DNA of 64,000 bases from Hormiphora californensis (Eukaryota; Animalia; Ctenophora). The stretch spans positions 5,704,001 through 5,768,000 of the forward strand of contig CM035352.1 of the NCBI GenBank assembly GCA_020137815.1. Reading direction: 5' to 3'. Both the position numbers and the translations under genes were made by a program. The notes beneath the pieces were generated by a model. It made no database searches, had not been told where the DNA came from, and saw only the letters and a list, made by a program, of their open reading frames with translations. Positions 2,239 to 57,695 of the stretch are shown here, one piece after another (within the stretch, counting starts at the first letter, position 1; each line of letters opens with the position of its first letter).

Positions 2239-4956
2239 ATGGAATCTACCTCCACCCCGTCCACCCAAGGACTCTATACAATCCTAGTTGGGATACTTCT
2301 GACAGTCCTGAGTTCCTTTATCTACTGGTACAGCAGCACCAATACTTCCTCCGATCCCGAGGAGCAGGAGAAGAAGGAGGAGGTGGTGGTGAAGAAGGGG
2401 AATGAGAAGAAACAAAGGTATTATAGCGATAACTAGACTGCTGTCTCTCTTCCACTGATATAAAGTGTGGGTCACGATGAAAATAGTGCCTCAATATATT
2501 GTGATTTCCTTCCATCTTTATTATCTCCCAGTGTCCCTGCCCCTGCGCCAAAATCCAAGAAACAACAACAGGCTGCAGCTGCTAAACGTCCCAGTCCCAC
2601 CTCCCACCCACTATTCGTGAACATGCTTCGAGGCCATACTGACACAATAAATGATATGGATATTGACCAATCAGGTTTGATACTTAGTTGTTTTATCGAG
2701 AATCTAGAAGCGTAAGATTGTATCTACTACCTTCTACTCACAACTGTCACCTTCATTCATGAAATATGAAATGACCCCTTCAGGTAAATTACTGGCCACA
2801 GTTTCTAACGATCAGACTGCCCGTGTGTGGTACATCAAGGACCTGGGCAAGGGACAGGATGTTAAGTAAGTGGTTTTGCAGTGGTTATGAGAACTCTTAT
2901 TAGAGTCACTACGTTTTCAATTCTCTTTTTACAATCCAATTAATAAAGAACGTGTTGCCTGCAGGTATACAAGAATCCCTCTGGAGACTGATGGTACATC
3001 CATTTCAATTTCACCTGATGGTAAAGCAGTAGCGGTCCTGCTACCCAATAAGAACTGTGTTGATATCCATAGATTGGGCAAGAAGCCTGGGGAAGCAGCA
3101 ACCCTTGTTCTCACAATCGATAAGGTAAGGGGGAGTCAGGGGAGAAAGAAGTCAGGGTAAATAAATAATTTTTAGGAAACTAGAGGTGGGAGGGAGGTGT
3201 AATTAAAATACTGGCCCTTTTCAGATAAAGGGTGATTTGAAGGATGTCTCTATTTCTCCCACTGGAAAGTTCATTATTGTTAGTACAGGAAAGACCCAAG
3301 TTTACGTTTACTCTCTCAAAGGTACCAAGTTCAAGATGCTCCCTGCTTTCTTACTAGCTTCCCCCATTCTCCAATAGTACTTTATAGTACCCTGACCAGA
3401 TTTCTCTGTTTACTAATTGATCAGCTATCTAATAATTCCCAGGTGAGCTCCTGCATACTATCGACACTGCTCAGATGTACAATGGTCAGATCTCTGTCAG
3501 TCCCTGTAAGGACCTCGTCGGTGCCTCTGGGTTCACCCCTCAGGTTCACTTTTGGGAGGTGAAATTCAACAAAGCTGGATCTTTCCAAGGGGTAAGTGGG
3601 TTCCGACTCCAGGAGTGCCCTCATGAGGTTCCCCCCAGTGGGACACACATGTGTGTGACTGTGCATCTTGGTGGCGGTTGTGGTTAAGGATTTGTGGAGC
3701 GCGCGGCGTTCCCCATCCAGTAACTTGGCATTGTTAGCAATGTAACGCGCACCCTTGCCGCGCCCTAGATCGAGCATCGTCACAAAATGTGTGTGACAGC
3801 TCAAACATCTGATATCCGGGAAGTGTGATGTGTAGATAAGCGGTGTGATTATATTTTCTGACCACTATCTCCCCTCTAGGTTCAAGAAGCAATGGATCTA
3901 TCGGGACACAAATCAGGAGTCTACTCATTTGCCTTTAGTGGAGATACCCGCCGTGCCGTGACAGTCTCAAAAGATGGAACTTGGAGGGTCTATAACACTG
4001 ATGGTACGGTACAATGAACCTCTATTAAATAGTTATATTCTTGAGCATCCAATCCCTGATCAGTGGTCACATACATAACACCCACATACACTCAACTAAT
4101 ATGTGTGTCCATAGTGAGCTGGCACCTGAACGAAGATCCCAAGCTGCTTGTATCGGGGGAGTATCCCGTTGACGATACCCAGGGTACGGCCCATGTTGCC
4201 ATGTCACCCGATGGTAGGATAGTTGCCATAGCAACCTCTAACAACATGAGTCTTTACAATTCGGACACTGCTGAACAAATCGATAGTCTTATCGGTATCC
4301 ACTCAGGTAGCTAGATATATAGGATTTATCTACAACAACTGTTTATGTTCAATCATCACCAAATAGATTTTCTAAACTTGAAATCCCCCTCCCTAGATTC
4401 CATAACTCGGCTGGAATTCTCGGACACTGGAAAGTATATCTTCACCTGTGGAAAAGATAAAACTGTTCGGGTATGGCTCAGTAGAGCTGGTAAGTAGTGT
4501 GCACTTTGTCTGACTGTACATCGAGCACCCCGGCCCGAAGAGGACGGTCTTATATGAGACAATGTGCACTGCAGTGTTAAATTGTGACTGCTTTTGTACA
4601 ACTGATAATTGTAATTTTATATTTTCATGTAGGTATGAAGCGAGATGTAGAGCTATGGGCTGAATCCCTTAAATCCGCGACAAACCCTTCTCACAAAGAG
4701 AGATTAAAAACACAAATAGCCGAGACAACGTAAGTACTGGGCTATTTTTTGTATATCCGTTGAACTCTCTCCGTTCATGTGTTGTGCTTCACAAGACATG
4801 AATGATGAACGGAGTTGTGACAGCATAATGATCGAGACTCTAGCTCCCTTTGTCTCTCTCTATCCCTCTTTCTGTGACAGCAACTATAATGTATGAGGTT
4901 AACAATGACACAATGATTTCAGAGCACGCCTGGCGGAGCTGGCGGTACTATGTTGA
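2239..4956 (+). CDS. TBL2: Transducin beta-like protein 2 (N-terminal TM anchor + WD40 propeller), multi-exon
   Basis: N-terminal hydrophobic helix (LYTILVGILLTVLSSFIYWY). Exons encode HPLFVNMLRGHTDTINDMD, VSPCKDLVGASGFTPQVHFWEVKF, GHKSGVYSFAFSGDTRRAVTVSKDGTWRVYNTD, NEDPKLL and C-terminal LKSATNPSHKERLKTQI. Short GT-AG introns; stop TGA at 4954-4956. Confidence 0.88.
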
Positions 4957-5504
4957 TCATTCCTGGGTTATATTATGGCAGGAGGAATGAACTCTAGTTT
5001 CTATTATTAGAGGCCGGCAGATAATTCCTTAAATCTTCATGTTTAATCATATATATTTTGTGGGTCACGTTAGATAATCGCGTTTGCATTGTTATACGTA
5101 GCGTGCTTGCACCCCGCTCTGGAGGGAATGTTTCGGAGTGGCGGGGGCTTGCAGAGGAATAGGAAAAAAGGTGTGTCTGTGTGCTATGGAGAGCATATAA
5201 TGCAACACTCACTGTCTGCCGCTCTGGTTTGAACTATCTCTTTCTCATTCAATATCTTTCTGCAGTAGAATCATCCTCAGTGCCACTCGACCACCTTGTA
5301 AAATATTGTGGCTGCATTAACCACCTGTTTTGCAGTGGGCTTACAGGGAATGTAAAGCGGTACCGGGGGTGATTATTTTCAACGGTGCTATTTTCAATTC
5401 CTCTCATGCAGTGATATCACATTTATTGGTCAACTCTCAAAATCCAATCAGTGCATAATCTCTCATTAGCATTTTGCAACGACAATTGTCTATCCTATCC
5501 TAAT

Positions 5505-8500
5505 ATGACTTATAACACCAGTTATTCCGCTGGCGGCTTCTCCGCCGGTGGTGGCGCTGGTTTCGCTGCTGGCGGTGGTGCCGGTTTTTCCGCAGGAGGC
5601 GGAGCCGGCGGATTTGCTGCAGGCGGCGGTGGCGGTGGATTTTCTGCCGGAATCTCTCTAAACATGGGAGGAGGAGGTGGTGGTGGAGCCGGAGGAGGCA
5701 GCGGCTTTACCATCATCCCCGCATCTTCCATCAACCTGGCTGAATACACAATTCTTCCTGCTAGCCAGGTCTTCGGATCTGATGGAGCTGTCCAGCCCAA
5801 GTTCCTTCCTCTTATTCCTCAGGCCATCATTCTCTTGCCTGATGGAGCTCTCGGAGCCCCAACCGGCCCCGGACTGCCCAAAAACATCGGGGACAGCCAG
5901 ATCCTGCTACCCCGTGGAACCATGCCCGGAGGTGCATCTCCTGGATCCATGGGACCCGGATCACCAACTCAACCTACCATGGTATCTCTGACTGTTGGAG
6001 GAGCTCCTGGTTATGGACCCAGTGGACCCAGTGGACCCAGTGGACCCGGCGGACCCGGTGGCCCAAGTGGACCTGGTGGACCATATGGACCAGGTGCTCC
6101 AGGAAGTCCTGGTGCTCCAGGAAGTCCCTTCGGACCATCTGGACCTAGTAGTCCCGGAGGTCTTGGTGTTGATATCGACATCAATATGGGACCCGGAGGA
6201 ATGGGACCCGGAGGAATGGGACCCGGAGGAATGGGACCTGGAGGAATGGGACCCGGAGGAATGGGACCTGGAGGAATGGGACCAGGAGGAATGGGACCCG
6301 GAGGTGCTGGCTTCTCCTTCAACGGAGTTTTCATCACTCCCGGAGGTAGTTACAGCGTGACCCTGCCCAGTGGAGCTTCCGTCATCGTGTCTGGTGCTTC
6401 CATCTCTCAGAACCCAAGCAACCCCGGAAGTGTTCTCGTCTCCTATGGAGGATCCACCCACGTTGTCTTCAGCGTCTCTCCTGCTGGTGGAGCTGCTGGA
6501 CCCAGTGGACCTGGAGGAGCTGCCGGAGGACTTGGCATCGACATCGACATTTATGGTGGTGCCGGTGGTGCCGGTGGTGCTGGTAGCCCATATGGACCCG
6601 GAGGTGCTATGGGACCTGCTGGTGGTCTTTCTGGACCTGCTGGAGGTGCTATGGGACCTGCCGGAGGTGCTGGCTTCTCCTTCAACGGAGTGTTCATCAC
6701 TCCCGGAGGTAGTTACAGCGTGACCCTGCCCAGTGGAGCTTCCGTCATCGTGTCTGGTGCTTCCATCTCTCAGAACCCAAGCAACCCCGGAAGTGTTCTC
6801 GTCTCCTATGGAGGATCCACCCACGTTGTCTTCAGCGTCTCTCCTGCTGGTGGAGCTGCTGGACCCAGTGGACCTAGTGGACCTGGAGGAGCTGCCGGAG
6901 GACTCGGCATCGACATCGACATTTATGGTGGTGCCGGTGGTGCTGGTAGCCCATATGGACCCGGAGGTGCTATGGGACCTGCTGGTGGTCTTTCTGGACC
7001 TGCTGGAGGTGCTATGGGACCTGCCGGAGGTGCTGGCTTCTCCTTCAACGGAGTGTTCATCTCTCCCGGAGGTAGTTACAGCGTGACCCTGCCCAGTGGA
7101 GCTTCCGTCATCGTGTCTGGTGCTTCCATCTCTCAGAACCCAAGCAACCCCGGAAGTGTTCTCGTCTCCTATGGAGGATCCACCCACGTTGTCTTCAGCG
7201 TCTCTCCTGCTGGTGGAGCTGCTGGACCCAGTGGACCTGGAGGAGCTGCCGGAGGACTTGGCATCGACATCGACATTTATGGTGGTGCCGGTGGTGCCGG
7301 TGGTGCTGGTAGCCCATATGGACCCGGAGGTGCTATGGGACCTGCTGGTGGTCTTTCTGGACCTGCTGGAGGTGCTATGGGACCTGCCGGAGGTGCTGGC
7401 TTCTCCTTCAACGGAGTGTTCATCTCTCCCGGAGGTAGATACAGCGTGACCCTGCCCAGTGGAGCTTCCGTCATCGTGTCTGGTGCTTCCATCTCTCAGA
7501 ACCCAAGCAACCCCGGAAGTGTTCTCGTCTCCTATGGAGGATCCACCCACGTTGTCTTCAGCGTCTCTCCTGCTGGTGGAGCTGCTGGACCCAGTGGACC
7601 TAGTGGACCTGGAGGAGCTGCCGGAGGACTCGGCATCGACATCGACATTTATGGTGGTGCCGGTGGTGCTGGTAGCCCATATGGACCCGGAGGTGCTATG
7701 GGACCTGCTGGTGGTCTTTCTGGACCTGCTGGAGGTGCTATGGGACCTGCCGGAGGTGCTGGCTTCTCCTTCAACGGAGTGTTCATCACTCCCGGAGGTA
7801 GTTACAGCGTGACCCTGCCCAGTGGAGCTTCCGTCATCGTGTCTGGTGCTTCCATCTCTCAGAACCCAAGCAACCCCGGAAGTGTTCTCGTCTCCTATGG
7901 AGGATCCACCCACGTTGTCTTCAGCGTCTCTCCTGCTGGTGGAGCTGCTGGACCCAGTGGACCTAGTGGACCTGGAGGAGCTGCCGGAGGACTTCGGCAT
8001 CGACATCGACATTTATGGTGGTGCCGGTGGTGCTGGTAGCCCATATGGACCCGGAGGTGCTATGGGACCTGCTGGTGGTCTTTCTGGACCTGCTGGAGGT
8101 GCTATGGGACCTGCCGGAGGTGCTGGCTTCTCCTTCAACGGAGTGTTCATCACTCCCGGAGGTAGTTACAGCGTGACCCTGCCCAGTGGAGCTTCCGTAA
8201 TCGTGTCTGGTGCTTCCATCTCTCAGAACCCAAGCAACCCCGGAAGTGTTCTCGTCTCCTATGGAGGATCCACCCACGTTGTCTTCAGCGTCTCTCCTGC
8301 TGGTGGAGCTGCTGGACCCAGTGGACCTGGAGGAGCTGCCGGAGGACTTGGCATCGACATCGACATTTATGGTGGTGCCGGTGGTGCCGGTGGTGCTGGT
8401 AGCCCATATGGACCCGGAGGTGCTATGGGACCTGCTGGTGGTCTTTCTGGACCTGCTGGAGGTGCTATGGGACCTGCCGGAGGTGCTGGCTTCTCCTTCA

Positions 8501-11500
8501 ACGGAGTGTTCATCACTCCCGGAGGTAGTTACAGCGTGACCCTGCCCAGTGGAGCTTCCGTCATCGTGTCTGGTGCTTCCATCTCTCAGAACCCAAGCAA
8601 CCCCGGAAGTGTTCTCGTCTCCTATGGAGGATCCACCCACGTTGTCTTCAGCGTCTCTCCTGCTGGTGGAGCTGCTGGACCCAGTGGACCTAGTGGACCT
8701 GGAGGAGCTGCCGGAGGACTTCGGCATCGACATCGACATTTATGGTGGTGCCGGTGGTGCTGGTAGCCCATATGGACCCGGAGGTGCTATGGGACCTGCT
8801 GGTGGTCTTTCTGGACCTGCTGGAGGTGCTATGGGACCTGCCGGAGGTGCTGGCTTCTCCTTCAACGGAGTGTTCATCACTCCCGGAGGTAGTTACAGCG
8901 TGACCCTGCCCAGTGGAGCTTCCGTCATCGTGTCTGGTGCTTCCATCTCTCAGAACCCAAGCAACCCCGGAAGTGTTCTCGTCTCCTATGGAGGATCCAC
9001 CCACGTTGTCTTCAGCGTCTCTCCTGCTGGTGGAGCTGCTGGACCCAGTGGACCTAGTGGAGGAGCTGCCGGAGGACTTGGCATCGACATCGACATTTAT
9101 GGTGGTGCCGGTGGTGCCGGTGGTGCTGGTAGCCCATATGGACCCGGAGGTGCTATGGGACCTGCTGGTGGTCTTTCTGGACCTGCTGGAGGTGCTATGG
9201 GACCTGCCGGAGGTGCTGGCTTCTCCTTCAACGGAGTGTTCATCACTCCCGGAGGTAGTTACAGCGTGACCCTGCCCAGTGGAGCTTCCGTCATCGTGTC
9301 TGGTGCTTCCATCTCTCAGAACCCAAGCAACCCCGGAAGTGTTCTCGTCTCCTATGGAGGATCCACCCACGTTGTCTTCAGCGTCTCTCCTGCTGGTGGA
9401 GCTGCTGGACCCAGTGGACCTAGTGGACCTGGAGGAGCTGCCGGAGGACTCGGCATCGACATCGACATTTATGGTGGTGCCGGTGGTGCTGGTAGCCCAT
9501 ATGGACCCGGAGGTGCTATGGGACCTGCTGGTGGTCTTTCTGGACCTGCTGGAGGTGCTATGGGACCTGCCGGAGGTGCTGGCTTCTCCTTCAACGGAGT
9601 GTTCATCACTCCCGGAGGTAGTTACAGCGTGACCCTGCCCAGTGGAGCTTCCGTCATCGTGTCTGGTGCTTCCATCTCTCAGAACCCAAGCAACCCCGGA
9701 AGTGTTCTCGTCTCCTATGGAGGATCCACCCACGTTGTCTTCAGCGTCTCTCCTGCTGGTGGAGCTGCTGGACCCAGTGGACCTAGTGGACCTGGAGGAG
9801 CTGCCGGAGGACTTCGGCATCGACATCGACATTTATGGTGGTGCCGGTGGTGCTGGTAGCCCATATGGACCCGGAGGTGCTATGGGACCTGCTGGTGGTC
9901 TTTCTGGACCTGCTGGAGGTGCTATGGGACCTGCCGGAGGTGCTGGCTTCTCCTTCAACGGAGTGTTCATCACTCCCGGAGGTAGTTACAGCGTGACCCT
10001 GCCCAGTGGAGCTTCCGTCATCGTGTCTGGTGCTTCCATCTCTCAGAACCCAAGCAACCCCGGAAGTGTTCTCGTCTCCTATGGAGGATCCACCCACGTT
10101 GTCTTCAGCGTCTCTCCTGCTGGTGGAGCTGCTGGACCCAGTGGACCTAGTGGACCTGGAGGAGCTGCCGGAGGACTTGGCATCGACATCGACATTTATG
10201 GTGGTGCCGGTGGTGCTGGTAGCCCATATGGACCCGGAGGTGCTATGGGACCTGCTGGTGGTCTTTCTGGACCTGCTGGAGGTGCTATGGGACCTGCCGG
10301 AGGTGCTGGCTTCTCCTTCAACGGAGTGTTCATCACTCCCGGAGGTAGTTACAGCGTGACCCTGCCCAGTGGAGCTTCCGTCATCGTGTCTGGTGCTTCC
10401 ATCTCTCAGAACCCAAGCAACCCCGGAAGTGTTCTCGTCTCCTATGGAGGATCCACCCACGTTGTCTTCAGCGTCTCTCCTGCTGGTGGAGCTGCTGGAC
10501 CCAGTGGACCTAGTGGACCTGGAGGAGCTGCCGGAGGACTTGGCATCGACATCGACATTTATGGTGGTGCCGGTGGTGCTGGTAGCCCATATGGACCCGG
10601 AGGTGCTATGGGACCTGCTGGTGGTCTTTCTGGACCTGCTGGAGGTGCTATGGGACCTGCCGGAGGTGCTGGCTTCTCCTTCAACGGAGTGTTCATCACT
10701 CCCGGAGGTAGTTACAGCGTGACCCTGCCCAGTGGAGCTTCCGTCATCGTGTCTGGTGCTTCCATCTCTCAGAACCCAAGCAACCCCGGAAGTGTTCTCG
10801 TCTCCTATGGAGGATCCACCCACGTTGTCTTCAGCGTCTCTCCTGCTGGTGGAGCTGCTGGACCCAGTGGACCTAGTGGACCTGGAGGAGCTGCCGGAGG
10901 ACTTGGCATCGACATCGACATTTATGGTGGTGCCGGTGGTGCTGGTAGCCCATATGGACCCGGAGGTGCTATGGGACCTGCTGGTGGTCTTTCTGGACCT
11001 GCTGGAGGTGCTATGGGACCTGCCGGAGGTGCTGGCTTCTCCTTCAACGGAGTGTTCATCACTCCCGGAGGTAGTTACAGCGTGACCCTGCCCAGTGGAG
11101 CTTCCGTCATCGTGTCTGGTGCTTCCATCTCTCAGAACCCAAGCAACCCCGGAAGTGTTCTCGTCTCCTATGGAGGATCCACCCACGTTGTCTTCAGCGT
11201 CTCTCCTGCTGGTGGAGCTGCTGGACCCAGTGGACCTAGTGGACCTGGAGGAGCTGCCGGAGGACTCGGCATCGACATCGACATTTATGGTGGTGCCGGT
11301 GGTGCTGGTAGCCCATATGGACCCGGAGGTGCTATGGGACCTGCTGGTGGTCTTTCTGGACCTGCTGGAGGTGCTATGGGACCTGCCGGAGGTGCTGGCT
11401 TCTCCTTCAACGGAGTGTTCATCACTCCCGGAGGTAGTTACAGCGTGACCCTGCCCAGTGGAGCTTCCGTCATCGTGTCTGGTGCTTCCATCTCTCAGAA

Positions 11501-14500
11501 CCCAAGCAACCCCGGAAGTGTTCTCGTCTCCTATGGAGGATCCACCCACGTTGTCTTCAGCGTCTCTCCTGCTGGTGGAGCTGCTGGACCCAGTGGACCT
11601 AGTGGACCTGGAGGAGCTGCCGGAGGACTTGGCATCGACATCGACATTTATGGTGGTGCCGGTGGTGCTGGTAGCCCATATGGACCCGGAGGTGCTATGG
11701 GACCTGCTGGTGGTCTTTCTGGACCTGCTGGAGGTGCTATGGGACCTGCCGGAGGTGCTGGCTTCTCCTTCAACGGAGTGTTCATCACTCCCGGAGGTAG
11801 TTACAGCGTGACCCTGCCCAGTGGAGCTTCCGTCATCGTGTCTGGTGCTTCCATCTCTCAGAACCCAAGCAACCCCGGAAGTGTTCTCGTCTCCTATGGA
11901 GGATCCACCCACGTTGTCTTCAGCGTCTCTCCTGCTGGTGGAGCTGCTGGACCCAGTGGACCTAGTGGACCTGGAGGAGCTGCCGGAGGACTTGGCATCG
12001 ACATCGACATTTATGGTGGTGCCGGTGGTGCTGGTAGCCCATATGGACCCGGAGGTGCTATGGGACCTGCTGGTGGTCTTTCTGGACCTGCTGGAGGTGC
12101 TATGGGACCTGCCGGAGGTGCTGGCTTCTCCTTCAACGGAGTGTTCATCACTCCCGGAGGTAGTTACAGCGTGACCCTGCCCAGTGGAGCTTCCGTCATC
12201 GTGTCTGGTGCTTCCATCTCTCAGAACCCAAGCAACCCCGGAAGTGTTCTCGTCTCCTATGGAGGATCCACCCACGTTGTCTTCAGCGTCTCTCCTGCTG
12301 GTGGAGCTGCTGGACCCAGTGGACCTAGTGGACCTGGAGGAGCTGCCGGAGGATTCGGCATCGACATCGACATTTATGGTGGTGCTGGTAGCCCATATGG
12401 ACCCGGAGGTGCTATGGGACCTGCTGGTGGTCTTTCTGGACCTGCTGGAGGTGCTATGGGACCTGCCGGAGGTGCTGGCTTCTCCTTCAACGGAGTGTTC
12501 ATCACTCCCGGAGGTAGTTACAGCGTGACCCTGCCCAGTGGAGCTTCCGTCATCGTGTCTGGTGCTTCCATCTCTCAGAACCCAAGCAACCCCGGAAGTG
12601 TTCTCGTCTCCTATGGAGGATCCACCCACGTTGTCTTCAGCGTCTCTCCTGCTGGTGGAGCTGCTGGACCCAGTGGACCTAGTGGACCTGGAGGAGCTGC
12701 CGGAGGACTTCGGCATCGACATCGACATTTATGGTGGTGCCGGTGGTGCTGGTAGCCCATATGGACCCGGAGGTGCTATGGGACCTGCTGGTGGTCTTTC
12801 TGGACCTGCTGGAGGTGCTATGGGACCTGCCGGAGGTGCTGGCTTCTCCTTCAACGGAGTGTTCATCACTCCCGGAGGTAGTTACAGCGTGACCCTGCCC
12901 AGTGGAGCTTCCGTCATCGTGTCTGGTGCTTCCATCTCTCAGAACCCAAGCAACCCCGGAAGTGTTCTCGTCTCCTATGGAGGATCCACCCACGTTGTCT
13001 TCAGCGTCTCTCCTGCTGGTGGAGCTGCTGGACCCAGTGGACCTGGAGGAGCTGCCGGAGGACTTGGCATCGACATCGACATTTATGGTGGTGCCGGTGG
13101 TGCTGGTAGCCCATATGGACCCGGAGGTGCTATGGGACCTGCTGGTGGTCTTTCTGGACCTGCTGGAGGTGCTATGGGACCTGCCGGAGGTGCTGGCTTC
13201 TCCTTCAACGGAGTGTTCATCACTCCCGGAGGTAGTTACAGCGTGACCCTGCCCAGTGGAGCTTCCGTCATCGTGTCTGGTGCTTCCATCTCTCAGAACC
13301 CAAGCAACCCCGGAAGTGTTCTCGTCTCCTATGGAGGATCCACCCACGTTGTCTTCAGCGTCTCTCCTGCTGGTGGAGCTGCTGGACCCAGTGGACCTGG
13401 AGGAGCTGCCGGAGGACTTGGCATCGACATCGACATTTATGGTGGTGCCGGTGGTGCTGGTAGCCCATATGGACCCGGAGGTGCTATGGGACCTGCTGGT
13501 GGTCTTTCTGGACCTGCTGGAGGTGCTATGGGACCTGCCGGAGGTGCTGGCTTCTCCTTCAACGGAGTGTTCATCACTCCCGGAGGTAGTTACAGCGTGA
13601 CCCTGCCCAGTGGAGCTTCCGTCATCGTGTCTGGTGCTTCCATCTCTCAGAACCCAAGCAACCCCGGAAGTGTTCTCGTCTCCTATGGAGGATCCACCCA
13701 CGTTGTCTTCAGCGTCTCTCCTGCTGGTGGAGCTGCTGGACCCAGTGGACCTAGTGGACCTGGAGGAGCTGCCGGAGGACTTGGCATCGACATCGACATT
13801 TATGGTGGTGCCGGTGGTGCTGGTAGCCCATATGGACCCGGAGGTGCTATGGGACCTGCTGGTGGTCTTTCTGGACCTGCTGGAGGTGCTATGGGACCTG
13901 CCGGAGGTGCTGGCTTCTCCTTCAACGGAGTGTTCATCACTCCCGGAGGTAGTTACAGCGTGACCCTGCCCAGTGGAGCTTCCGTCATCGTGTCTGGTGC
14001 TTCCATCTCTCAGAACCCAAGCAACCCCGGAAGTGTTCTCGTCTCCTATGGAGGATCCACCCACGTTGTCTTCAGCGTCTCTCCTGCTGGTGGAGCTGCT
14101 GGACCCAGTGGACCTAGTGGACCTGGAGGAGCTGCCGGAGGACTTGGCATCGACATCGACATTTATGGTGGTGCCGGTGGTGCTGGTAGCCCATATGGAC
14201 CCGGAGGTGCTATGGGACCTGCTGGTGGTCTTTCTGGACCTGCTGGAGGTGCTATGGGACCTGCCGGAGGTGCTGGCTTCTCCTTCAACGGAGTGTTCAT
14301 CACTCCCGGAGGTAGTTACAGCGTGACCCTGCCCAGTGGAGCTTCCGTCATCGTGTCTGGTGCTTCCATCTCTCAGAACCCAAGCAACCCCGGAAGTGTT
14401 CTCGTCTCCTATGGAGGATCCACCCACGTTGTCTTCAGCGTCTCTCCTGCTGGTGGAGCTGCTGGACCCAGTGGACCTAGTGGACCTGGAGGAGCTGCCG

Positions 14501-17500
14501 GAGGATTCGGCATCGACATCGACATTTATGGTGGTGCCGGTGGTGCTGGTAGCCCATATGGACCCGGAGGTGCTATGGGACCTGCTGGTGGTCTTTCTGG
14601 ACCTGCTGGAGGTGCTATGGGACCTGCCGGAGGTGCTGGCTTCTCCTTCAACGGAGTGTTCATCACTCCCGGAGGTAGTTACAGCGTGACCCTGCCCAGT
14701 GGAGCTTCCGTCATCGTGTCTGGTGCTTCCATCTCTCAGAACCCAAGCAACCCCGGAAGTGTTCTCGTCTCCTATGGAGGATCCACCCACGTTGTCTTCA
14801 GCGTCTCTCCTGCTGGTGGAGCTGCTGGACCCAGTGGACCTAGTGGACCTGGAGGAGCTGCCGGAGGACTTGGCATCGACATCGACATTTATGGTGGTGC
14901 CGGTGGTGCTGGTAGCCCATATGGACCCGGAGGTGCTATGGGACCTGCTGGTGGTCTTTCTGGACCTGCTGGAGGTGCTATGGGACCTGCCGGAGGTGCT
15001 GGCTTCTCCTTCAACGGAGTGTTCATCACTCCCGGAGGTAGTTACAGCGTGACCCTGCCCAGTGGAGCTTCCGTCATCGTGTCTGGTGCTTCCATCTCTC
15101 AGAACCCAAGCAACCCCGGAAGTGTTCTCGTCTCCTATGGAGGATCCACCCACGTTGTCTTCAGCGTCTCTCCTGCTGGTGGAGCTGCTGGACCCAGTGG
15201 ACCTAGTGGACCTGGAGGAGCTGCCGGAGGACTTCGGCATCGACATCGACATTTATGGTGGTGCCGGTGGTGCTGGTAGCCCATATGGACCCGGAGGTGC
15301 TATGGGACCTGCTGGTGGTCTTTCTGGACCTGCTGGAGGTGCTATGGGACCTGCCGGAGGTGCTGGCTTCTCCTTCAACGGAGTGTTCATCACTCCCGGA
15401 GGTAGTTACAGCGTGACCCTGCCCAGTGGAGCTTCCGTCATCGTGTCTGGTGCTTCCATCTCTCAGAACCCAAGCAACCCCGGAAGTGTTCTCGTCTCCT
15501 ATGGAGGATCCACCCACGTTGTCTTCAGCGTCTCTCCTGCTGGTGGAGCTGCTGGACCCAGTGGACCTAGTGGACCTGGAGGAGCTGCCGGAGGACTTCG
15601 GCATCGACATCGACATTTATGGTGGTGCCGGTGGTGCTGGTAGCCCATATGGACCCGGAGGTGCTATGGGACCTGCTGGTGGTCTTTCTGGACCTGCTGG
15701 AGGTGCTATGGGACCTGCCGGAGGTGCTGGCTTCTCCTTCAACGGAGTGTTCATCACTCCCGGAGGTAGTTACAGCGTGACCCTGCCCAGTGGAGCTTCC
15801 GTCATCGTGTCTGGTGCTTCCATCTCTCAGAACCCAAGCAACCCCGGAAGTGTTCTCGTCTCCTATGGAGGATCCACCCACGTTGTCTTCAGCGTCTCTC
15901 CTGCTGGTGGAGCTGCTGGACCCAGTGGACCTAGTGGACCTGGAGGAGCTGCCGGAGGATTCGGCATCGACATCGACATTTATGGTGGTGCCGGTGGTGC
16001 TGGTAGCCCATATGGACCCGGAGGTGCTATGGGACCTGCTGGTGGTCTTTCTGGACCTGCTGGAGGTGCTATGGGACCTGCCGGAGGTGCTGGCTTCTCC
16101 TTCAACGGAGTGTTCATCACTCCCGGAGGTAGTTACAGCGTGACCCTGCCCAGTGGAGCTTCCGTCATCGTGTCTGGTGCTTCATCTCTCAGAACCCAAG
16201 GCTGGACCCTTGGACCAGGGCTGGGACGCTGGGTTCGGACCTCGATTAGGTGCCGGGGGCTGTTCCTAACGAGTGTTATACTCCGGGGTTTCGCGGACCC
16301 TGCCATGGGCTTCCGATGTGTCTCCATTTCAACCCAGAACCGGACGGTCTCGTCTCTTGGGTCCACCCACTGCTCCCCCCTGTGTGGCTCTGGAATGACC
16401 AGTGCTGAGGGCTCCGGGTTGGCTCGACATGACATTTGGGGCCGGGGGCTGGTGCCATCCCGAGGCTTGGTGCTGGTGCTTCGGATGCTGAGGGTGCTGG
16501 ACCTGCCGAGGCTGGTTCCTTCCGGAGGTTCTCCTCCGGGGTGTTACAACTCCCGGGAGTTCCGTACTGTCTGGGCTTCATCTCGACACAACCCGAAGCC
16601 CCCGAGGTCCCCCCACGTTGTCTTCTCGCTTCTGCGGACGTGACCCAGTGGACCTGGGACTGGGGAGCTCGAGATGCATGACATATGGTGGTGGGCGGTA
16701 AGCAACCCGGAAGTGTTCTCGTCTCCTATGGAGGATCCACCCACGTTGTCTTCAGCGTCTCTCCTGCTGGTGGAGCTGCTGGACCCAGTGGACCTGGAGG
16801 AGCTGCCGGAGGATTCGGCATCGACATCGACATTTATGGTGGTGCCGGTGGTGCTGGTAGCCCATATGGACCCGGAGGTGCTATGGGACCTGCTGGTGGT
16901 CTTTCTGGACCTGCTGGAGGTGCTATGGGACCTGCCGGAGGTGCTGGCTTCTCCTTCAACGGAGTGTTCATCACTCCCGGAGGTAGTTACAGCGTGACCC
17001 TGCCCAGTGGAGCTTCCGTCATCGTGTCTGGTGCTTCCATCTCTCAGAACCCAAGCAACCCCGGAAGTGTTCTCGTCTCCTATGGAGGATCCACCCACGT
17101 TGTCTTCAGCGTCTCTCCTGCTGGTGGAGCTGCTGGACCCAGTGGACCTAGTGGACCTGGAGGAGCTGCCGGAGGACTTGGCATCGACATCGACATTTAT
17201 GGTGGTGCCGGTGGTGCTGGTAGCCCATATGGACCCGGAGGTGCTATGGGACCTGCTGGTGGTCTTTCTGGACCTGCTGGAGGTGCTATGGGACCTGCCG
17301 GAGGTGCTGGCTTCTCCTTCAACGGAGTGTTCATCACTCCCGGAGGTAGTTACAGCGTGACCCTGCCCAGTGGAGCTTCCGTCATCGTGTCTGGTGCTTC
17401 CATCTCTCAGAACCCAAGCAACCCCGGAAGTGTTCTCGTCTCCTATGGAGGATCCACCCACGTTGTCTTCAGCGTCTCTCCTGCTGGTGGAGCTGCTGGA

Positions 17501-18955
17501 CCCAGTGGACCTAGTGGACCTGGAGGAGCTGCCGGAGGATTCGGCATCGACATCGACATTTATGGTGGTGCCGGTGGTGCTGGTAGCCCATATGGACCCG
17601 GAGGTGCTATGGGACCTGCTGGTGGTCTTTCTGGACCTGCTGGAGGTGCTGGCTTCTCCTTCAACGGAGTGTTCATCACTCCCGGAGGTAGTTACAGCGT
17701 GACCCTGCCCAGTGGAGCTTCCGTCATCGTGTCTGGTGCTTCCATCTCTCAGAACCCAAGCAACCCTGGAAGTGTTCTCGTCTCCTATGGAGGATCCACC
17801 CACGTTGTCTTCAGCGTCTCTCCTGCTGGTGGAGCTGCTGGACCCAGTGGACCTAGTGGACCTGGAGGAGCTGCCGGAGGATTCGGCATTGACATTGACG
17901 TTTATGGTGGCATGGGACCTGGAGGAATGGGACCTGGAGGAATGGGACCCGGAAGTATGGGACCCGGAGGAATGGGACCTGGAGGAATGGGACCCGGAGG
18001 AATGGGACCCGGAGGAATGGGACCTGGAGGAATGGGACCCGGAGGAATGGGACCCGGAGGAATGGGACCCGGAAGCAGGGGACCAAGTGGTCCTAGTATT
18101 GATATTGACATCTATGCTGGGCCCTCTGGACCTTCTGGACCTGGTGGTCTTGCCAGTCCTTATGGACCTAGTGGACCTTCCGGACCTGGTGGTCTTGCCA
18201 GTCCTTATGGACCTAGTGGGCCTATGGGACCCGCTGGACCTATGGGACCTGCTGGACCTATGGGACCTGCTGGTCCATCTGGACCATCTGGACCATATGG
18301 TCCTTACTCTCCAGGATCGCCCTTCGGCTCACCTGGTTCATCCATCCCATCTGATAGCGATGGTTCAAGCTCTGATGGCGAAGCCGATGATCCATCCAAG
18401 CTGCCCTACCCTGGCTCCAACTATCTCCCTGGATTCCTGTCTCGTGCTAACCTACCCCGTGGTACCCGACATTTCCCTCTCTACGTTATGTTCAACCCTG
18501 ACGGATCTGTCAAGCCTGTGTACACTCCTCTGCGTTCTGACAAGCGGCCCATTGTTATCCTTCCCCGGGATATGATGAACCGTGCACCCAGGGCTCCCCC
18601 ATCCAACACCCCTGCCTTCACCGTGAACAACACCCCCATCATCCCTACCAAGTTCTACCAGATTAATATCAACGGTGCTACCTCTACTGTGCCTGGTCGT
18701 TACATCCGACAGAGGCGAAGCAAGGGAGGATTCTCTGTTAAGGTCGCCGGACAGCGTCGTGCCATCAGGGCCGGATACAGTCTTGTTGAGGTCGGAGCCA
18801 ATGCCGGAGGATACGCCGCTGGAGGTGCTGCTAGTGGTGGATACGCTGCTGGAGGTGCTGCTAGTGGTGGATACGCATCTGCTGGTGGATTCGGAGGAGG
18901 TTTCTCGAGTGGTGGTGCTACCGGATATGGAGGTGGCTACATGAGGAACTGTTAG
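5505..18955 (+). CDS. Giant Gly/Ser/Ala/Pro-rich repetitive silk-like/elastomeric structural protein (~4,500 aa if indels are repaired), no introns apparent
   Basis: ATG at 5505 ([12 protein letters not shown]...), then a Gly-rich head, a unique domain, (GPGGM)n, ~31 copies of a 121-aa module, (GPGGM)n again, unique C-terminal domains and stop at 18953-18955. The frame is broken only by six identical +1 events (GGA-CTTC-GGC) and one scrambled stretch (16184-16700). Confidence 0.85.
6309..17905 (+). repeat. Coding tandem array, unit ~363 bp (variants ~342/354/364/366 bp), ~31 near-identical copies plus ~1.5 corrupted copies
   Basis: Out-of-frame ORF starts recur at 6370, 6733, 7096, 7459, 7822 ... 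17007, 17370, 17712. Unit: [121 protein letters not shown]. Confidence 0.97.
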
Positions 18956-19119: not shown

Positions 19120-19729
19120 TTAACCAACGAGTTCGTCCATTTCAAGATTAAAGTTCTCTATCTGTTGCTGAAGATCCTCAATCTCTTTCTCCTTGTACTC
19201 AAACGCTGTCTCGAATGTGTCAATAGCGTTCTGTAGGCTGTCATTCTCACGTCGCAGCTTCTCAACCTCAACCTGAAAACAGAAAGGAGAAGTTTGTCCA
19301 ATAAATATTGGAGAAGCAGGTGTAAAGATTGGAGAAGCAGGTGTAGAGATTGGAGAAGCAGGTGTAAAGATTGTGAATTCCAAACATCTCACCTCAAGTT
19401 CTGACTTTTCGTTTGCCATACAATCCTTCTGTTCATGAAGAGAATCAAGCTCGCTGTCTGCCAGTGCCAACCTACTAACAAGATCTCGCTTCTCATTTTC
19501 CAACTGAAATACAGTTAAAAGTCACTGAATCGGTCAACAAAACGACTGAATAGCTTTAGTAGAAACGGTTAATAAAACAACTAAAACAGTATTTGATCAC
19601 GAAAGACACCTGTGTAACAAGCTCAGACTTCTCCTGGACTGTGTCCAAGAGGTCATCCGCCCGGGTTATGGCTTTATCTCGCTCCTGCATCAACAGAATT
19701 ATCTTATTCTTTAAAAACTCTAGGGCCAT
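19120..19729 (-). CDS. Short (127 aa) tropomyosin-like coiled-coil protein; exons 19729-19610, 19503-19393, 19272-19120
   Basis: Three phase-0 GT-AG exons give MALEFLKNKIILLMQERDKAITRADDLLDTVQEKSELVTQ|LENEKRDLVSRLALADSELDSLHEQKDCMANEKSELE|VEVEKLRRENDSLQNAIDTFETAFEYKEKEIEDLQQQIENFNLEMDELVG*. It is proline-free with continuous heptads, and the N-terminus resembles tropomyosin M..LKxK...L..ERD.A..RA. Confidence 0.65.
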
Positions 19730-20366: not shown

Positions 20367-20803
20367 AGACATGAACTACCCGATACTTAGCCAGACATGA
20401 ACTACCCGATACTTAGCCAGACATGAACTACCCGATACTTAGTCAGACATGAACTACCCGATACTTAGCCAGACATGAACTACCCGATACTTAGCCAGAC
20501 ATGAACTACCCGATACTTAGCCAGACATGAACTACTCGATACTTAGCCAGACATGAACTACCCGATACTTAGCGAGACATGAACTACCCGATACTTAGCC
20601 AGACATGAACTACCCGATACTTAGCCAGACATGAACTACCCGATACTTAGCCAGACATGAACTACCCGATACTTAGCCAGACATGAACTACCCGATACTT
20701 AGCCAGACATGAACTACCCGATACTTAGCCAGACATGAACTACCCGATACTTAGCGAGACATGAACTACCCGATACTTAGCCAGACATGAACTACCCGAT
20801 ACT
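20367..20803. repeat. 26-bp minisatellite (AGACATGAACTACCCGATACTTAGCC), ~17 copies
   Basis: Head-to-tail near-identical units with no spacers. Confidence 0.95.
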
Positions 20804-21053
20804 TCTCCTCTTATCTAGCTTATCTTACCATCCGATGTTCCTAATAATACATAACACGGTTTAACCCTGGCACATACTTGTTGAGTAAGGACAACAACTG
20901 TCTGGTGATTATACTTATAGGTCAAGTTATCTTGTACACCAGTTATATGACCTGATTTGCAGCTCACAGCTGTATACTTGTTATGAAACTACAGTATCAT
21001 TTTACTGGCAGCATGTGTAATCCATTTAGAGAGATAGAAAAGAGAGTGAGAGA

Positions 21054-53474: not shown

Positions 53475-56106
53475 TTATCGTATACTAAACGAGCCTCTTG
53501 CATCAAAAAACTCGTCATGCCTTCTGTTAGTTATTTGGGCTGCGATCTGCTCATAAGGTGGAGGAGATTGTAAACTTCTCTCAAATATCTCAGTCCTATC
53601 TAGTACCTCGGCGAAGGATACTTGTTTCTTGAGCCGTCTCTTCCTTACCACTCTGTCCTGGGTAACGTTCCTGAGAGCTGAGCGGCGTAGTGGTGATCTT
53701 TGGGTGTCCTGAGGGAGGGAGAGGGGTGTTAAACTTAGTAAGCAGAGCAAGAAACGCAATATAACAGCACTGAACGAAGCCTCTGTGAGGATGGGAACTG
53801 ACACATTCGCTCCAGGGGACAACTACGAAGCGCCCGTATGTCAATGCTCTCAGAAAATCCCAGAATACGCTCGAAACTTTCCTTGCTGAGAGCCTGGAAA
53901 GGATGACACTGATTTGTTGTGCGAGAGTACGTGTTCTAAATGGTTTTATGAAGGAGCAGCGTCAAATAACGACCCTGGATTCGGAGGAAAAAATTCTGAA
54001 ACGGAACGCGCTCGACTCCTGGGAAAGTGTCGGCACCTTAAACGGACACGGCTGAAATCAGTGTTTGAAGGAGTAGCTTTGATAGCGTTAACTAAACAAT
54101 ATCAATGGCACTGGGCCTTTTCTACATCGCTAAGACAGTTCGAGGAGCTAGTGATAGATTTGGAGCAGGGAAAAGCTGTAGCAGATGGTGCCGCAGTGAT
54201 TTCTAATGACATCAAAAAGAGACTGGAAATGCTTGTAACCTCTATCGGAAAACTGGAAAAAGTAGTGACACATGAACTGCAGAAGAAGCGTCCTACGTTC
54301 GCAATCACTGAAACCCAGACTATAGCCGACACGGCAGACTCCTTTACTTCTACAGAAACGAATCCTGTACTGAGCCCCCGTGTTGTGCAAGATATAATGG
54401 AACTAGGGACAAAGAAATCTTCTAGTTCTATGGAAACAGTGATTTGGGTTGGCCCACCCAGTCTAGTACAGAGCGAGGCAACACGGGACAGGAGAAGAGA
54501 AGCAGGTAAGTCGGAAGAACGTGTCCGTTTGTCTCATGAGGCGCCTCATGAGGCCTCATGAGACATTTTCAGCTGTTTTAGTGCCTCATGAGGCCTCATG
54601 AGACCTCATGAGGCGCCTCATGAGGCACTCATGAGGCCTCATGAGGCCTCATGAGACACTGCTCATGAGGCCTCATGAGACATGTGCCTCATCCCGACTT
54701 TGTTTTGATGTCTCATGAGGCCTCATGAGCAGTTTTGACATGAGGCATGTCTCATGAGGCCTCATGAGGCATATCTCATGACACCTTAGAGTTAGTATAG
54801 CCATAGGGTTAAGGCTAGGGTTAGAGTTAGGACCGGGTTTCGGTTCCAGTTAGGAGTACGAACCTAACCACTAAGCCCTAACCACTAAGCCTAGGGGTTA
54901 ACCCCAACCAATAGGCGTAGGCCTAGAAGTCTATCCTTAACCCTAACACTAACCCTAACCTTAATCCTAATACCAACCTAAAGTTAGGGTTAGGATTAGT
55001 GTAATTGGGTTAAGGATTGAACCCTAGGCCTTGGACCTAGGTTTATCATATTGTCATAAAAGTTTGGGGTTAACCCCTAGGCCTAGTGGTTAGGCTCGTA
55101 CCCCTAACTGGAACTGAAACCCGGTGCTAACTCTAACCCTAGCCTTAACCCTATGGCTATACTAACTCTAAGGTGTCATGAGATATGCCTCATGAGACAT
55201 GCCTCATGTCAAAACTGCTCATGAGGCCTCATGAGACATCAAAACAAAGTCGGGATGAGGCACATGTCTCATGAGGCCTCATGAGCAGTGTCTCATGAGG
55301 CCTCATGAGGCCTCATGAGTGCCTCATGAGGCGCCTCATGAGGTCTCATGAGGCCTCATGAGGCACTAAAACAGCTGAAAATGTCTCATGAGGCCTCATG
55401 AGGCGCCTCATGAGTGCCTCATGAGGTCTCATGAGGCGCCTCATGAGGCCTCATGAGACAAACGGACACGTTCTTCCGACTTACCGAGAAGCAAATACTC
55501 ATTTTGGTGCAGAACAATACCACAAACCATCTCAAGGAGACTTTGTTGAACCTAACTCTGAACTACCAGCTACCATCGAAGAATCTAGCAAGTACCTAGC
55601 TCGCCACATCCAGGATGAGAACTACCACCTCAAATATCAATTTCATCCGCTACATCCCCGCTCACAAGTAGCAAGTCTCCTATTGTAGAGGATAATGTCC
55701 CTGGTTCTCAAATTGAGCAACCTTCAACTGAGTCAGATTATGTTATGATATTTCTTGGTTCCGAATACAAGGACACCTGTTTATCTTGTTACAACATAAT
55801 CTTACTATATACTATATAATGCAAAAACACCCAAAACTTGATCCCACCCATGCATGTTTGGTGGTCCCTAAATCGTCGTCATCAAGATCAGATCACATCA
55901 CCCAACATGCATGATCAGATCACCCTACTGAGGATCATATCCCCCCACCCAAGATTAGATCATCCCAGTGAGTATCAGATCATCCCAGTGGTTATCAGAT
56001 CCCACATTTCACCCAGCAGTCCACTGTGCGTGATGAGATCCCCATATAGAGTAGAAAATAGACAAAGACGACAGAGAAATTGAGATAGAAATTGAGATAG
56101 AAATGA

Positions 56107-56832: not shown

Positions 56833-57695
56833 GTGAGCTAATAAAAATGGAGAGTTTTATGAGCTAGAAACATAGGGGAGTTGTGAGCTAGAAACATAGG
56901 GGAGTTGTGAGCTAGAAACATAGGGGAGTTTTGTGAGCTAGAAACATAGGGGAGTTGTGAGCTAGAAACATAGGGGAGTTTTGTGAGCTAATAAAACAGG
57001 GGAGTTGTGAGCTAGAAACATAGGGGAGTTTTGTGAGCTAGAAACATAGGGGAGTTTTGTGAGCTAGAAACATAAGGGAGTTGTGAGCTAATAAAACAGG
57101 GGAGTTTTGTGAGCTAGAAACATAGGGGAGTTTTGTGAGCTAGAAACATAGGGGAGTTTTGTGAGCTAGAAACATAGGGGAGTTGTGAGCTAGAAACATA
57201 GGGGAGTTTTGTGAGCTAGAAACATAAGGGAGTTGTAAGCTAGAAACATAAGGGAGTTGTGAGCTAGAAACATAAGGGAGTTGTGAGCTAGAAACATAAG
57301 GGAGTTGTGAGCTAGAAACATAGGGGAGTTGTGAGCTAATAAAACAGGGGAGTTGTGAGCTAGAAACATAGGGGAGTTTTGTGAGCTAGAAACATAAGGG
57401 AGTTTTGTGAGCTAGAAACATAAGGGAGTTGTGAGCTAGAAACATAGGGGAGTTGTGAGCTAGAAACATAAGGGAGTTGTGAGCTAGAAACATATGGGAG
57501 TTGTGAGCTACAAACATAGGGCAGTTGTGAGCTAATAAAACAGGGGAGTTGTGAGCTAGAAACATAAGGGAGTTGTGAGCTAGAAACATAGGGGAGTTGT
57601 GAGCTAGAAACAAAAGGGAGTTGTGAGCTAGAAACATAAGGGAGTTGTAAGCTAGAAGCATAAGGGAGTTGTGAGCTAGAAACATAAGGAAGTTG
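56833..57695. repeat. 24/26-bp minisatellite (GTGAGCTAGAAACATAGGGGAGTT[TT]), ~35 copies
   Basis: Head-to-tail units filling most of the gap between the GINS3 stop and the next gene's ATG. Confidence 0.95.

Follow-up and report, generated by a model that had tools for sequence, protein, structure and literature searches.

We suggest that a giant Gly/Pro-rich repeat protein of the ctenophore Hormiphora californensis ends in a cationic domain that is almost certainly homologous to the uncharged core repeated along the protein. The best explanation of the whole, which we regard as reasonably likely, is that this terminal domain, B', and the core are small barrels of a family without a name, and that B' is the likely anchoring end of an elastic chain. 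The window, i.e., the whole stretch of DNA that was analysed, is 64,000 nucleotides long. Proteins from the searches are given by P numbers, and sequencing data by X numbers.

The giant gene and its reading frame

The gene and its parts are as follows.

5505..18955, + strand: gene for a giant Gly/Pro-rich repeat protein (ATG at 5505, stop at 18955, about 4,480 codons)
5706..5999, + strand: N-terminal conserved region with module A (about 5742-5860), apparently related to module A' and to the N-terminus of P0021
6186..6305, + strand: about eight GPGGM pentapeptides ahead of the array
6312..17824, + strand: array of 30 complete cores and one core split by a garbled patch, period 363 nt
6312..6482, + strand: first array core, a 57-residue uncharged domain, predicted eight-strand small beta-barrel
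16185..16700, + strand: garbled patch of degenerate repeat, splitting one core (halves at 16095 and 16706)
17912..18343, + strand: 11.5 GPGGM-type repeats and a GPSGP/GPMGP spacer behind the array
18344..18400, + strand: acidic patch rich in Ser and Asp that close homologues also conserve; the basic end may bind it
18401..18616, + strand: module A' (core about 18455-18590), basic and highly conserved, pLDDT below 60 as a monomer
18617..18793, + strand: cationic terminal barrel B', almost certainly a homologue of the array cores and predicted to form a small beta-barrel of eight strands
18797..18952, + strand: Gly/Ala-rich tail of 52 residues, the last being Cys (18950-18952)

The gene apparently consists of a single exon. 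In the assembly, its frame is broken by six 1-nt insertions and by the garbled patch. The insertions lie in the linkers behind the cores at 7764, 8491, 9584, 12480, 15004 and 15368, and all six consist of an identical chimeric four-letter string at the sole polymorphic codon of the repeat. Because the same string occurs at the only site where the repeat units differ, the frameshifts are likely an artefact of consensus building or polishing. The garbled patch is likewise likely to be low-quality assembly or an assembly error. The homologue P0016 is intact: its frame stays open for 2,868 residues, it has 21 cores, and its layout and both ends are those of the window protein.

B' is in frame at 18617, within the final open frame of the giant ORF. 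Independent backing for the C-terminal sequence comes from a DNA contig that spans 18221-18838 with one difference in 618 nt. Contigs from three RNA libraries also back this region, and the domain is free of indels. The C-terminal stretch is present in 20 of the 24 listed sequencing runs (10 recorded as RNA), which are from marine or aquatic samples. The region 3800-6200, which includes the 5' end of the gene, is hardly covered in the RNA libraries X8 and X19.

Each array unit of 121 residues comprises the 57-residue core (171 nt) and a 64-residue linker. There are just two charged residues per unit, both of them Asp in the linker; the core has none. The linkers contain 44% Gly, 12% Pro and 20% Ala with a single IDIDI motif each, and are predicted to be disordered, IDIDI included (pLDDT of about 35 in an AlphaFold2 model of core plus linker). 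Disordered repeats high in Gly plus Pro, as here, are a mark of elastomeric Gly/Pro proteins. P0006, P0007 and P0008 represent a related array protein with cores about 82% identical, Gly/Ala linkers and IDIDI sometimes absent, and record 1 of the RNA contig X13, at window positions 17692-17837, is of the same type. Since this variant type exists and variant cores also occur in the DNA run X2, the data suggest that there are paralogous array genes.

No hydrophobic leader was seen at the N-termini of the window protein, P0016 and three distant members. By a hydropathy proxy applied to the annotated N-termini, upstream of which a further exon could lie, the best 12-residue values are 0.6-0.97 (0.87-0.97 for the window protein and 0.89 for P0016) compared with 2.5 for a membrane-anchor control. 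Because the N-termini have no such leader, the giant protein is likely intracellular. Its N-terminal region is 58% identical to that of P0015. At the other end, a Cys lies within the final 10 residues in all nine close C-termini (window, P0002, P0003, P0009-P0014). The window protein and its close homologues are otherwise almost devoid of Cys, and end-linking or lipidation are candidate roles for the terminal one.

Homology, predicted fold and family of the barrels

The first-pass annotation had claimed, from an alignment by eye, that a hidden and diverged copy of the repeat core caps the C-terminus. We reproduced this alignment exactly, with the same 15 identities. The score of this hand-picked pair was reached by 9 of 10000 shuffles in local and 2 of 10000 in global alignment. 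When the core was compared with the 132-residue non-repetitive C-terminus or with the whole 204-residue C-terminus, the counts rose to 103 of 10000 and 295 of 5000. Pairwise, the signal is thus borderline (p of about 0.001 when hand-picked, 0.06 when unselected).

We regard the homology as settled, beyond these modest pairwise statistics, because of a third-party profile and comparisons among homologues. The profile was iterated from one P0021 domain and contains 20 domains that lie upstream of A'-B' in P0019, P0020, P0021 and P0023; it includes no array core and no terminal barrel. Run blind over 1210 six-frame segments of the window, it finds the 30 cores at E values of 2e-11 to 2.4e-10, the half core at 16095 at 2.4e-5 and B' at 18617 at 5.3e-5, and the next match has an E value of 0.22. 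Core and B' score 44 and 26 bits with 0 of 2000 shuffles reaching either score, and reversed B' scores -2.7. The query through which these proteins were discovered included B', so that their relation to the core was tested fully blind and their relation to B' was not; the two relations together complete the argument.

The comparisons among homologues point the same way. The window core matches the terminal barrel of P0012 with a z of 10.4 (0 of 2000 shuffles), and the tail of P0013 has a second, intermediate module that matches both the core (0 of 5000) and two terminal barrels (0 of 3000). For three cores against nine terminal barrels, the joint score was reached by 2 of 2000 column shuffles and 0 of 2000 block shuffles, and by 2 of 1500 in an unselected version. 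Profiles built from cores only and from B' only match the same distant domains in register; for example, the core profile finds residues 38-95 of P0019 at 22.4 bits, although P0019 came from a C-terminal query. The signal is uneven, with p at or below 0.01 in 9 of the 27 core and B' pairs. No match was obtained between core and terminal domain within P0003 (1981 of 3000 shuffles) or between the P0016 core and the B' of its type, and the B'-only profile did not find the cores across the whole window.

Could the resemblance be chance, or convergence of beta-hairpin patterns? The unselected p of 0.06 would allow this, as would hhalign, which gave core against B' a probability of 1-5% at shallow alignment depth and, in an early profile test with the first two homologues, 16 of 300 shuffles with a reversed control that scored higher. 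Small barrels are also a common fold. However, the third-party profile, the in-register intermediates and the clean block shuffles largely refute this explanation, which we consider highly improbable. Thus, B' is almost certainly a homologue of the array core.

The predicted structures lead to the same conclusion. Both AlphaFold2 models are built on only 7-9 sequences. For the C-terminal 132 residues (nine sequences), B' reached a pLDDT of 83-92, with strands at 73-75, 78-80, 85-90 and 93-98, a 3-10 turn, and strands at 102-104, 111-115, 118-122 and 127-131. The earlier view that the core is a real folded domain agrees with the model based on an alignment of cores only (seven rows), which gave a core pLDDT of 85-92, with strands at 6-8, 11-13, 18-22 and 28-32, a 3-10 turn, and strands at 36-38, 46-50, 53-57 and 60-62. 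The separate models have the same eight-strand barrel with equal element order at an offset of 65-67 residues, and their register is that of the sequence alignment. As for the claim that the domain caps the protein, it does lie near the C-terminal end, but the model extends the domain by one strand beyond the end first noted, to 18793, and the 52-residue Gly/Ala tail comes after it. The idea that IDIDI completes the barrel as a donor strand is not supported by one monomer model, where the core is closed by its own last strand and IDIDI has a pLDDT of about 35.

Foldseek returned no match at E <= 0.001 for either segment; the structures ranked highest with B' were DUF903 lipoproteins and C-terminal domains of BirA, and those ranked highest with the core were Hfq, BirA and Tudor domains. 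VIA-align reached a Z of at most 4.9 (51 residues aligned, rmsd 2.4) and 4.4 (49 aligned, rmsd 2.7) for the two segments, against a background of 7-8. The top rows are small barrels; 9 of 50 rows are common to core and B', four of them with an identical 67-residue offset. Because Z is at background level, these matches indicate a class only, not a family or a function. A viral fold library gave no match at E <= 0.001. Modelled in this way, core and B' are very probably small SH3/Tudor/Sm-like beta-barrels. By sequence, they do not belong to the Tudor, Sm/Hfq, KOW or DUF903 families proper. Neither core nor B' matches a Pfam family at E <= 5, and for nine relatives no Pfam match at <= 0.1 bears on the barrels; no PDB sequence matches the family below E 0.4. 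The ESM Atlas returned unnamed bacterial clusters for the C-terminus (0.93-0.95, low recognition) and nothing for the core.

Word-index protein searches found 2, 5 and 6 homologues. Among 1.84 billion representatives, a profile matched 11: three known proteins, six new ones (P0017-P0021, P0023) and two by chance. The latter, P0022 and P0024, have no barrel match and were rejected; P0024 is a bacterial repeat protein. None of the 358 pattern matches in a scan of metagenome contigs was confirmed. P0021, from Pleurobrachia bachei, is the sole family member that carries an organism name, and the barrel family is likely ctenophore in origin. P0021 also has an exact internal duplication of 300 residues, probably an artefact of the gene model. 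A literature search, covering mainly sources other than subscription papers and bioRxiv supplements, found no description of the protein or family, and six short motifs sought in the supplement of PMC6278862 gave one unrelated match only.

The window protein matches the third-party barrel profile that marks the multi-barrel family (P0013, P0017-P0021, P0023). In P0019, P0020, P0021 and P0023, the A'-B' end is preceded by numerous divergent versions of the domain, and the layout A-(barrels)n-A'-B' is common to the window protein and the distant multi-barrel proteins. A further barrel and C-terminal domain, found in P0013, P0017, P0018, P0020, P0021 and P0023, are missing from the window protein. 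In P0020, P0021 and P0023, the final 200-400 residues or so are rich in Ser-Pro motifs and hold, besides this extra barrel, a conserved domain, about 130 residues long, for which Pfam has no match.

In a tree of 37 barrels over 61 columns, one branch with support of 97/97 sets apart the 14 terminal barrels, among them those of proteins without an array. A constraint that joins the cores with the close terminal barrels lowers the log-likelihood by 11.9 units and is not rejected (AU p 0.16). The earlier description of B' as a diverged copy of the array core therefore holds as to homology, but the descent it implies fits less well, since the tree puts B' with terminal barrels from distant proteins that have no array. 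With moderate confidence, we suggest that B' is probably an older positional subtype, i.e., a sibling kept together with its conserved neighbouring module, and not a decayed array copy.

This reading is backed by a second internal duplication that the sequences suggest for the giant protein, that of A and A'. The window N-terminus was compared with eight A' copies, and 0-2 of 2000 shuffles reached the score in each case; the P0015 N-terminus gave a weaker signal (21-262 of 2000). A profile, whose two N-terminal rows were hand-picked, matches module A at E 1.8e-5, and module A is also related to the N-termini of P0021 and P0023. Though A' is more conserved than B', it has no confident fold alone, and it may fold on a partner. 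Prediction of a two-copy complex of 18344-18796, run without an alignment, scored 0.00, which counts neither for nor against association.

Charge of the terminal barrel and a possible mechanism

B' has 10 Lys/Arg and one Asp/Glu, whereas the core is uncharged and the linker has its two Asp in 64 residues, so the charge contrast described in the first-pass annotation is real. The net charge of B' is +9 in the window protein, +9 to +11 in eight close proteins of the Gly-rich type, +6 to +8 in P0013, P0017 and P0018, and -2, +4 and +2 in P0020, P0021 and P0023, which have no IDIDI and 5-7% Gly. Because the B' of P0020 is at -2, charge is not a constant of the family. Strong basicity tracks the silk-like type; this speaks for an electrostatic role of some kind but does not single out IDIDI as the partner.

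The annotation had taken this contrast to suggest electrostatic assembly. In that case, basic B' would bind the acidic IDIDI strands and cross-link or cap the chains. This would agree with a B' that is more basic in the eight close proteins (+9 to +11) than in the three large ones that lack IDIDI (-2 to +4), though the close homologues are mostly C-terminal fragments, so that the correlation cannot properly be counted. IDIDI also carries all the charge there is in the array, and P0016 (22 motifs) and P0006/P0008 have retained it. However, one B' of net +9 would face about 30 motifs with about 60 linker Asp, at just two Asp per motif. The P0018 barrel is at +6 without IDIDI, one P0007 linker lacks the motif, and a longer acidic Ser/Asp patch adjoins A'-B' in the same chain. 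We thus consider binding to IDIDI unlikely. The Ser/Asp patch lies about 70 residues upstream of B', directly ahead of A'-B', in the window protein and its close homologues, and we infer that this patch or an external polyanion is a likelier partner. By eye, Ser/Asp/Glu patches precede the basic barrels in P0020, P0021 and P0023 too.

The basic residues R100, R103, R105, K114 and R119 are invariant in all nine close homologues (54-93% identity). Together with the lack of a signal peptide and with fold neighbours that include Hfq, LSm, WYL, Tudor and Sac7d domains, they would suit a B' that binds nucleic acid or chromatin in the manner of basic Sm, KOW, Tudor and Sac7d barrels. The chain would then be tethered to the nucleus or an RNA granule, and the acidic patch would be an autoinhibitory mimic, as acidic tails are in Hfq. 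We doubt this, since the fold matches are all at background, no sequence link to Pfam or PDB exists and the array barrels are uncharged. The same invariant positions go beyond what bulk charge needs, and so weigh against B' being simply a retained ancestral domain for folding of the end module or for solubility, whose charge would solubilise an uncharged giant without any specific partner. Two charged residues per 121-residue unit and the family range of -2 to +11 are in its favour, but this explanation is improbable.

We return to B' as the likely anchoring end. That the giant protein is a structural elastomer seems probable to us; that B' is a polyanion-binding anchor is offered more tentatively. 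Small barrels often associate via edge strands and tune their function by surface charge, and tandem arrays are known, according to 10.1101/140376. High Gly/Pro, low-charge repeats typify disordered elastomers such as Cnidoin (PMC4321713). In the history we propose, an ancestral multi-barrel protein would have retained its A'-B' end, and one upstream barrel would have lost all charges and been amplified together with silk-like spacers. The predicted disordered Gly/Pro linkers would act as entropic springs, and neighbouring chains could touch side by side through the beta edges of their uncharged barrels and IDIDI strands. At the chain end, the basic surface of A'-B' would bind a polyanion, most likely the adjacent Ser/Asp patch of its own or a neighbouring chain, possibly tuned by phosphorylation. 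Alternatively, the polyanion could be an acidic scaffold, and in this way the chain ends would be tied.

The spiral filament is a structural element of the colloblast. A bolder and distinctly doubtful extension is that ctenophores independently evolved a giant intracellular silk out of small beta-barrels specific to their lineage, in which about 30 uncharged barrels polymerise edge to edge between GPGG springs and the basic barrel anchors the fibre, i.e., the spiral filament or a similar organelle spring.

Known systems and the genomic neighbourhood

The molecular make-up of the mechanical and adhesive structures of ctenophores is still largely open. In PMC6278862, Babonis et al. describe colloblast candidates without strong homology to known adhesives. 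Elastomeric repeat proteins are a known kind, and here a probable one is built from a domain family that is undescribed and has no Pfam or PDB sequence match. An internal duplication by itself is ordinary; the family and the architecture give it significance, because they connect a giant gene of silk-like repeats with multi-domain proteins of conventional appearance. They also suggest a route to an elastomer, where one folded domain is amplified with Gly/Pro spacers and the ancestral end module is kept. The 57-residue core and the 132-residue end module are concrete candidates for expression and for a new beads-and-springs design of biomaterials.

Known small beta-barrels, such as the TDRD3 Tudor domain (5yj8), DUF903-type proteins (3bdu, 2ra2, 5cai), Hfq and the BirA C-terminal domain, have a five-strand core with a 3-10 turn; the strand pattern predicted for the window domain fits this, with about 50 residues aligned to the window models at 2.4-2.8 A, though at background-level scores. 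The window domain differs by an extra N-terminal hairpin, no Pfam or PDB sequence match and Z scores below 5. It also occurs as about 30 near-identical uncharged copies with silk-like linkers, a case that does not appear in the accessible text of 10.1101/140376.

The protein can also be compared with elastic chains. Spider flagelliform and MaSp2 spidroins have the GPGGX motif and folded terminal domains. The window gene resembles them in its very long homogenised Gly/Pro repeats, GPGGM runs and conserved non-repetitive ends, but its protein has no signal peptide and has a predicted folded barrel in every repeat. Neither end matches the spidroin N- or C-terminal domains in Pfam, and the C-terminal model is all-beta, not helical. 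Titin and twitchin are intracellular giant chains of small beta domains and disordered springs. The window protein, likely intracellular, would be a similar beads-and-springs giant, with beads that are predicted SH3-like barrels instead of Ig/Fn3 domains and a silk-like spring after each bead.

Cnidoin of Hydra nematocysts (PMC4321713) is Gly/Pro/Met-rich, hydrophobic and low in charge with terminal network-linking modules; it is secreted, with 403 residues, a signal peptide, a propeptide and cysteine-rich domains. It shares with the window protein a Gly/Pro/Met-rich, hydrophobic and low-charge composition in a non-bilaterian and the terminal modules. The window protein is about ten times longer, has barrels and lacks the signal peptide, propeptide and cysteine-rich domains. 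CTENO189, a protein of the comb-plate lamella, is likewise a large, ctenophore-restricted structural protein, and has a metalloprotease and two death domains according to 10.1101/2022.03.27.486007. Identity of the window protein with CTENO189 was rejected, since these domains were not detected in it or in P0020, P0021 and P0023.

The giant gene is flanked by the following features. The genes upstream of it are tightly packed.

1-575: 3' end of an intron-containing WD40 protein gene, which we take to be Notchless-like
632-2038: single-exon coiled-coil ORF of 468 residues
2238-4950: WD40 gene, N-terminally anchored, with introns of about 100 nt, presumably TBL2-like
4510-4566: short, very-high-copy interspersed element inside an intron, with many loose-ended contigs in both DNA runs
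19120-19521, - strand: coiled-coil exon converging on the 3' end of the giant gene, with weak HOOK/ERM-like Pfam scores
27900-29340, 54580-55460, 20367-20804 and 56860-57695: satellite-like arrays, of which two consist of palindromic 10-mers

The remainder of the window is filled by microsatellites.
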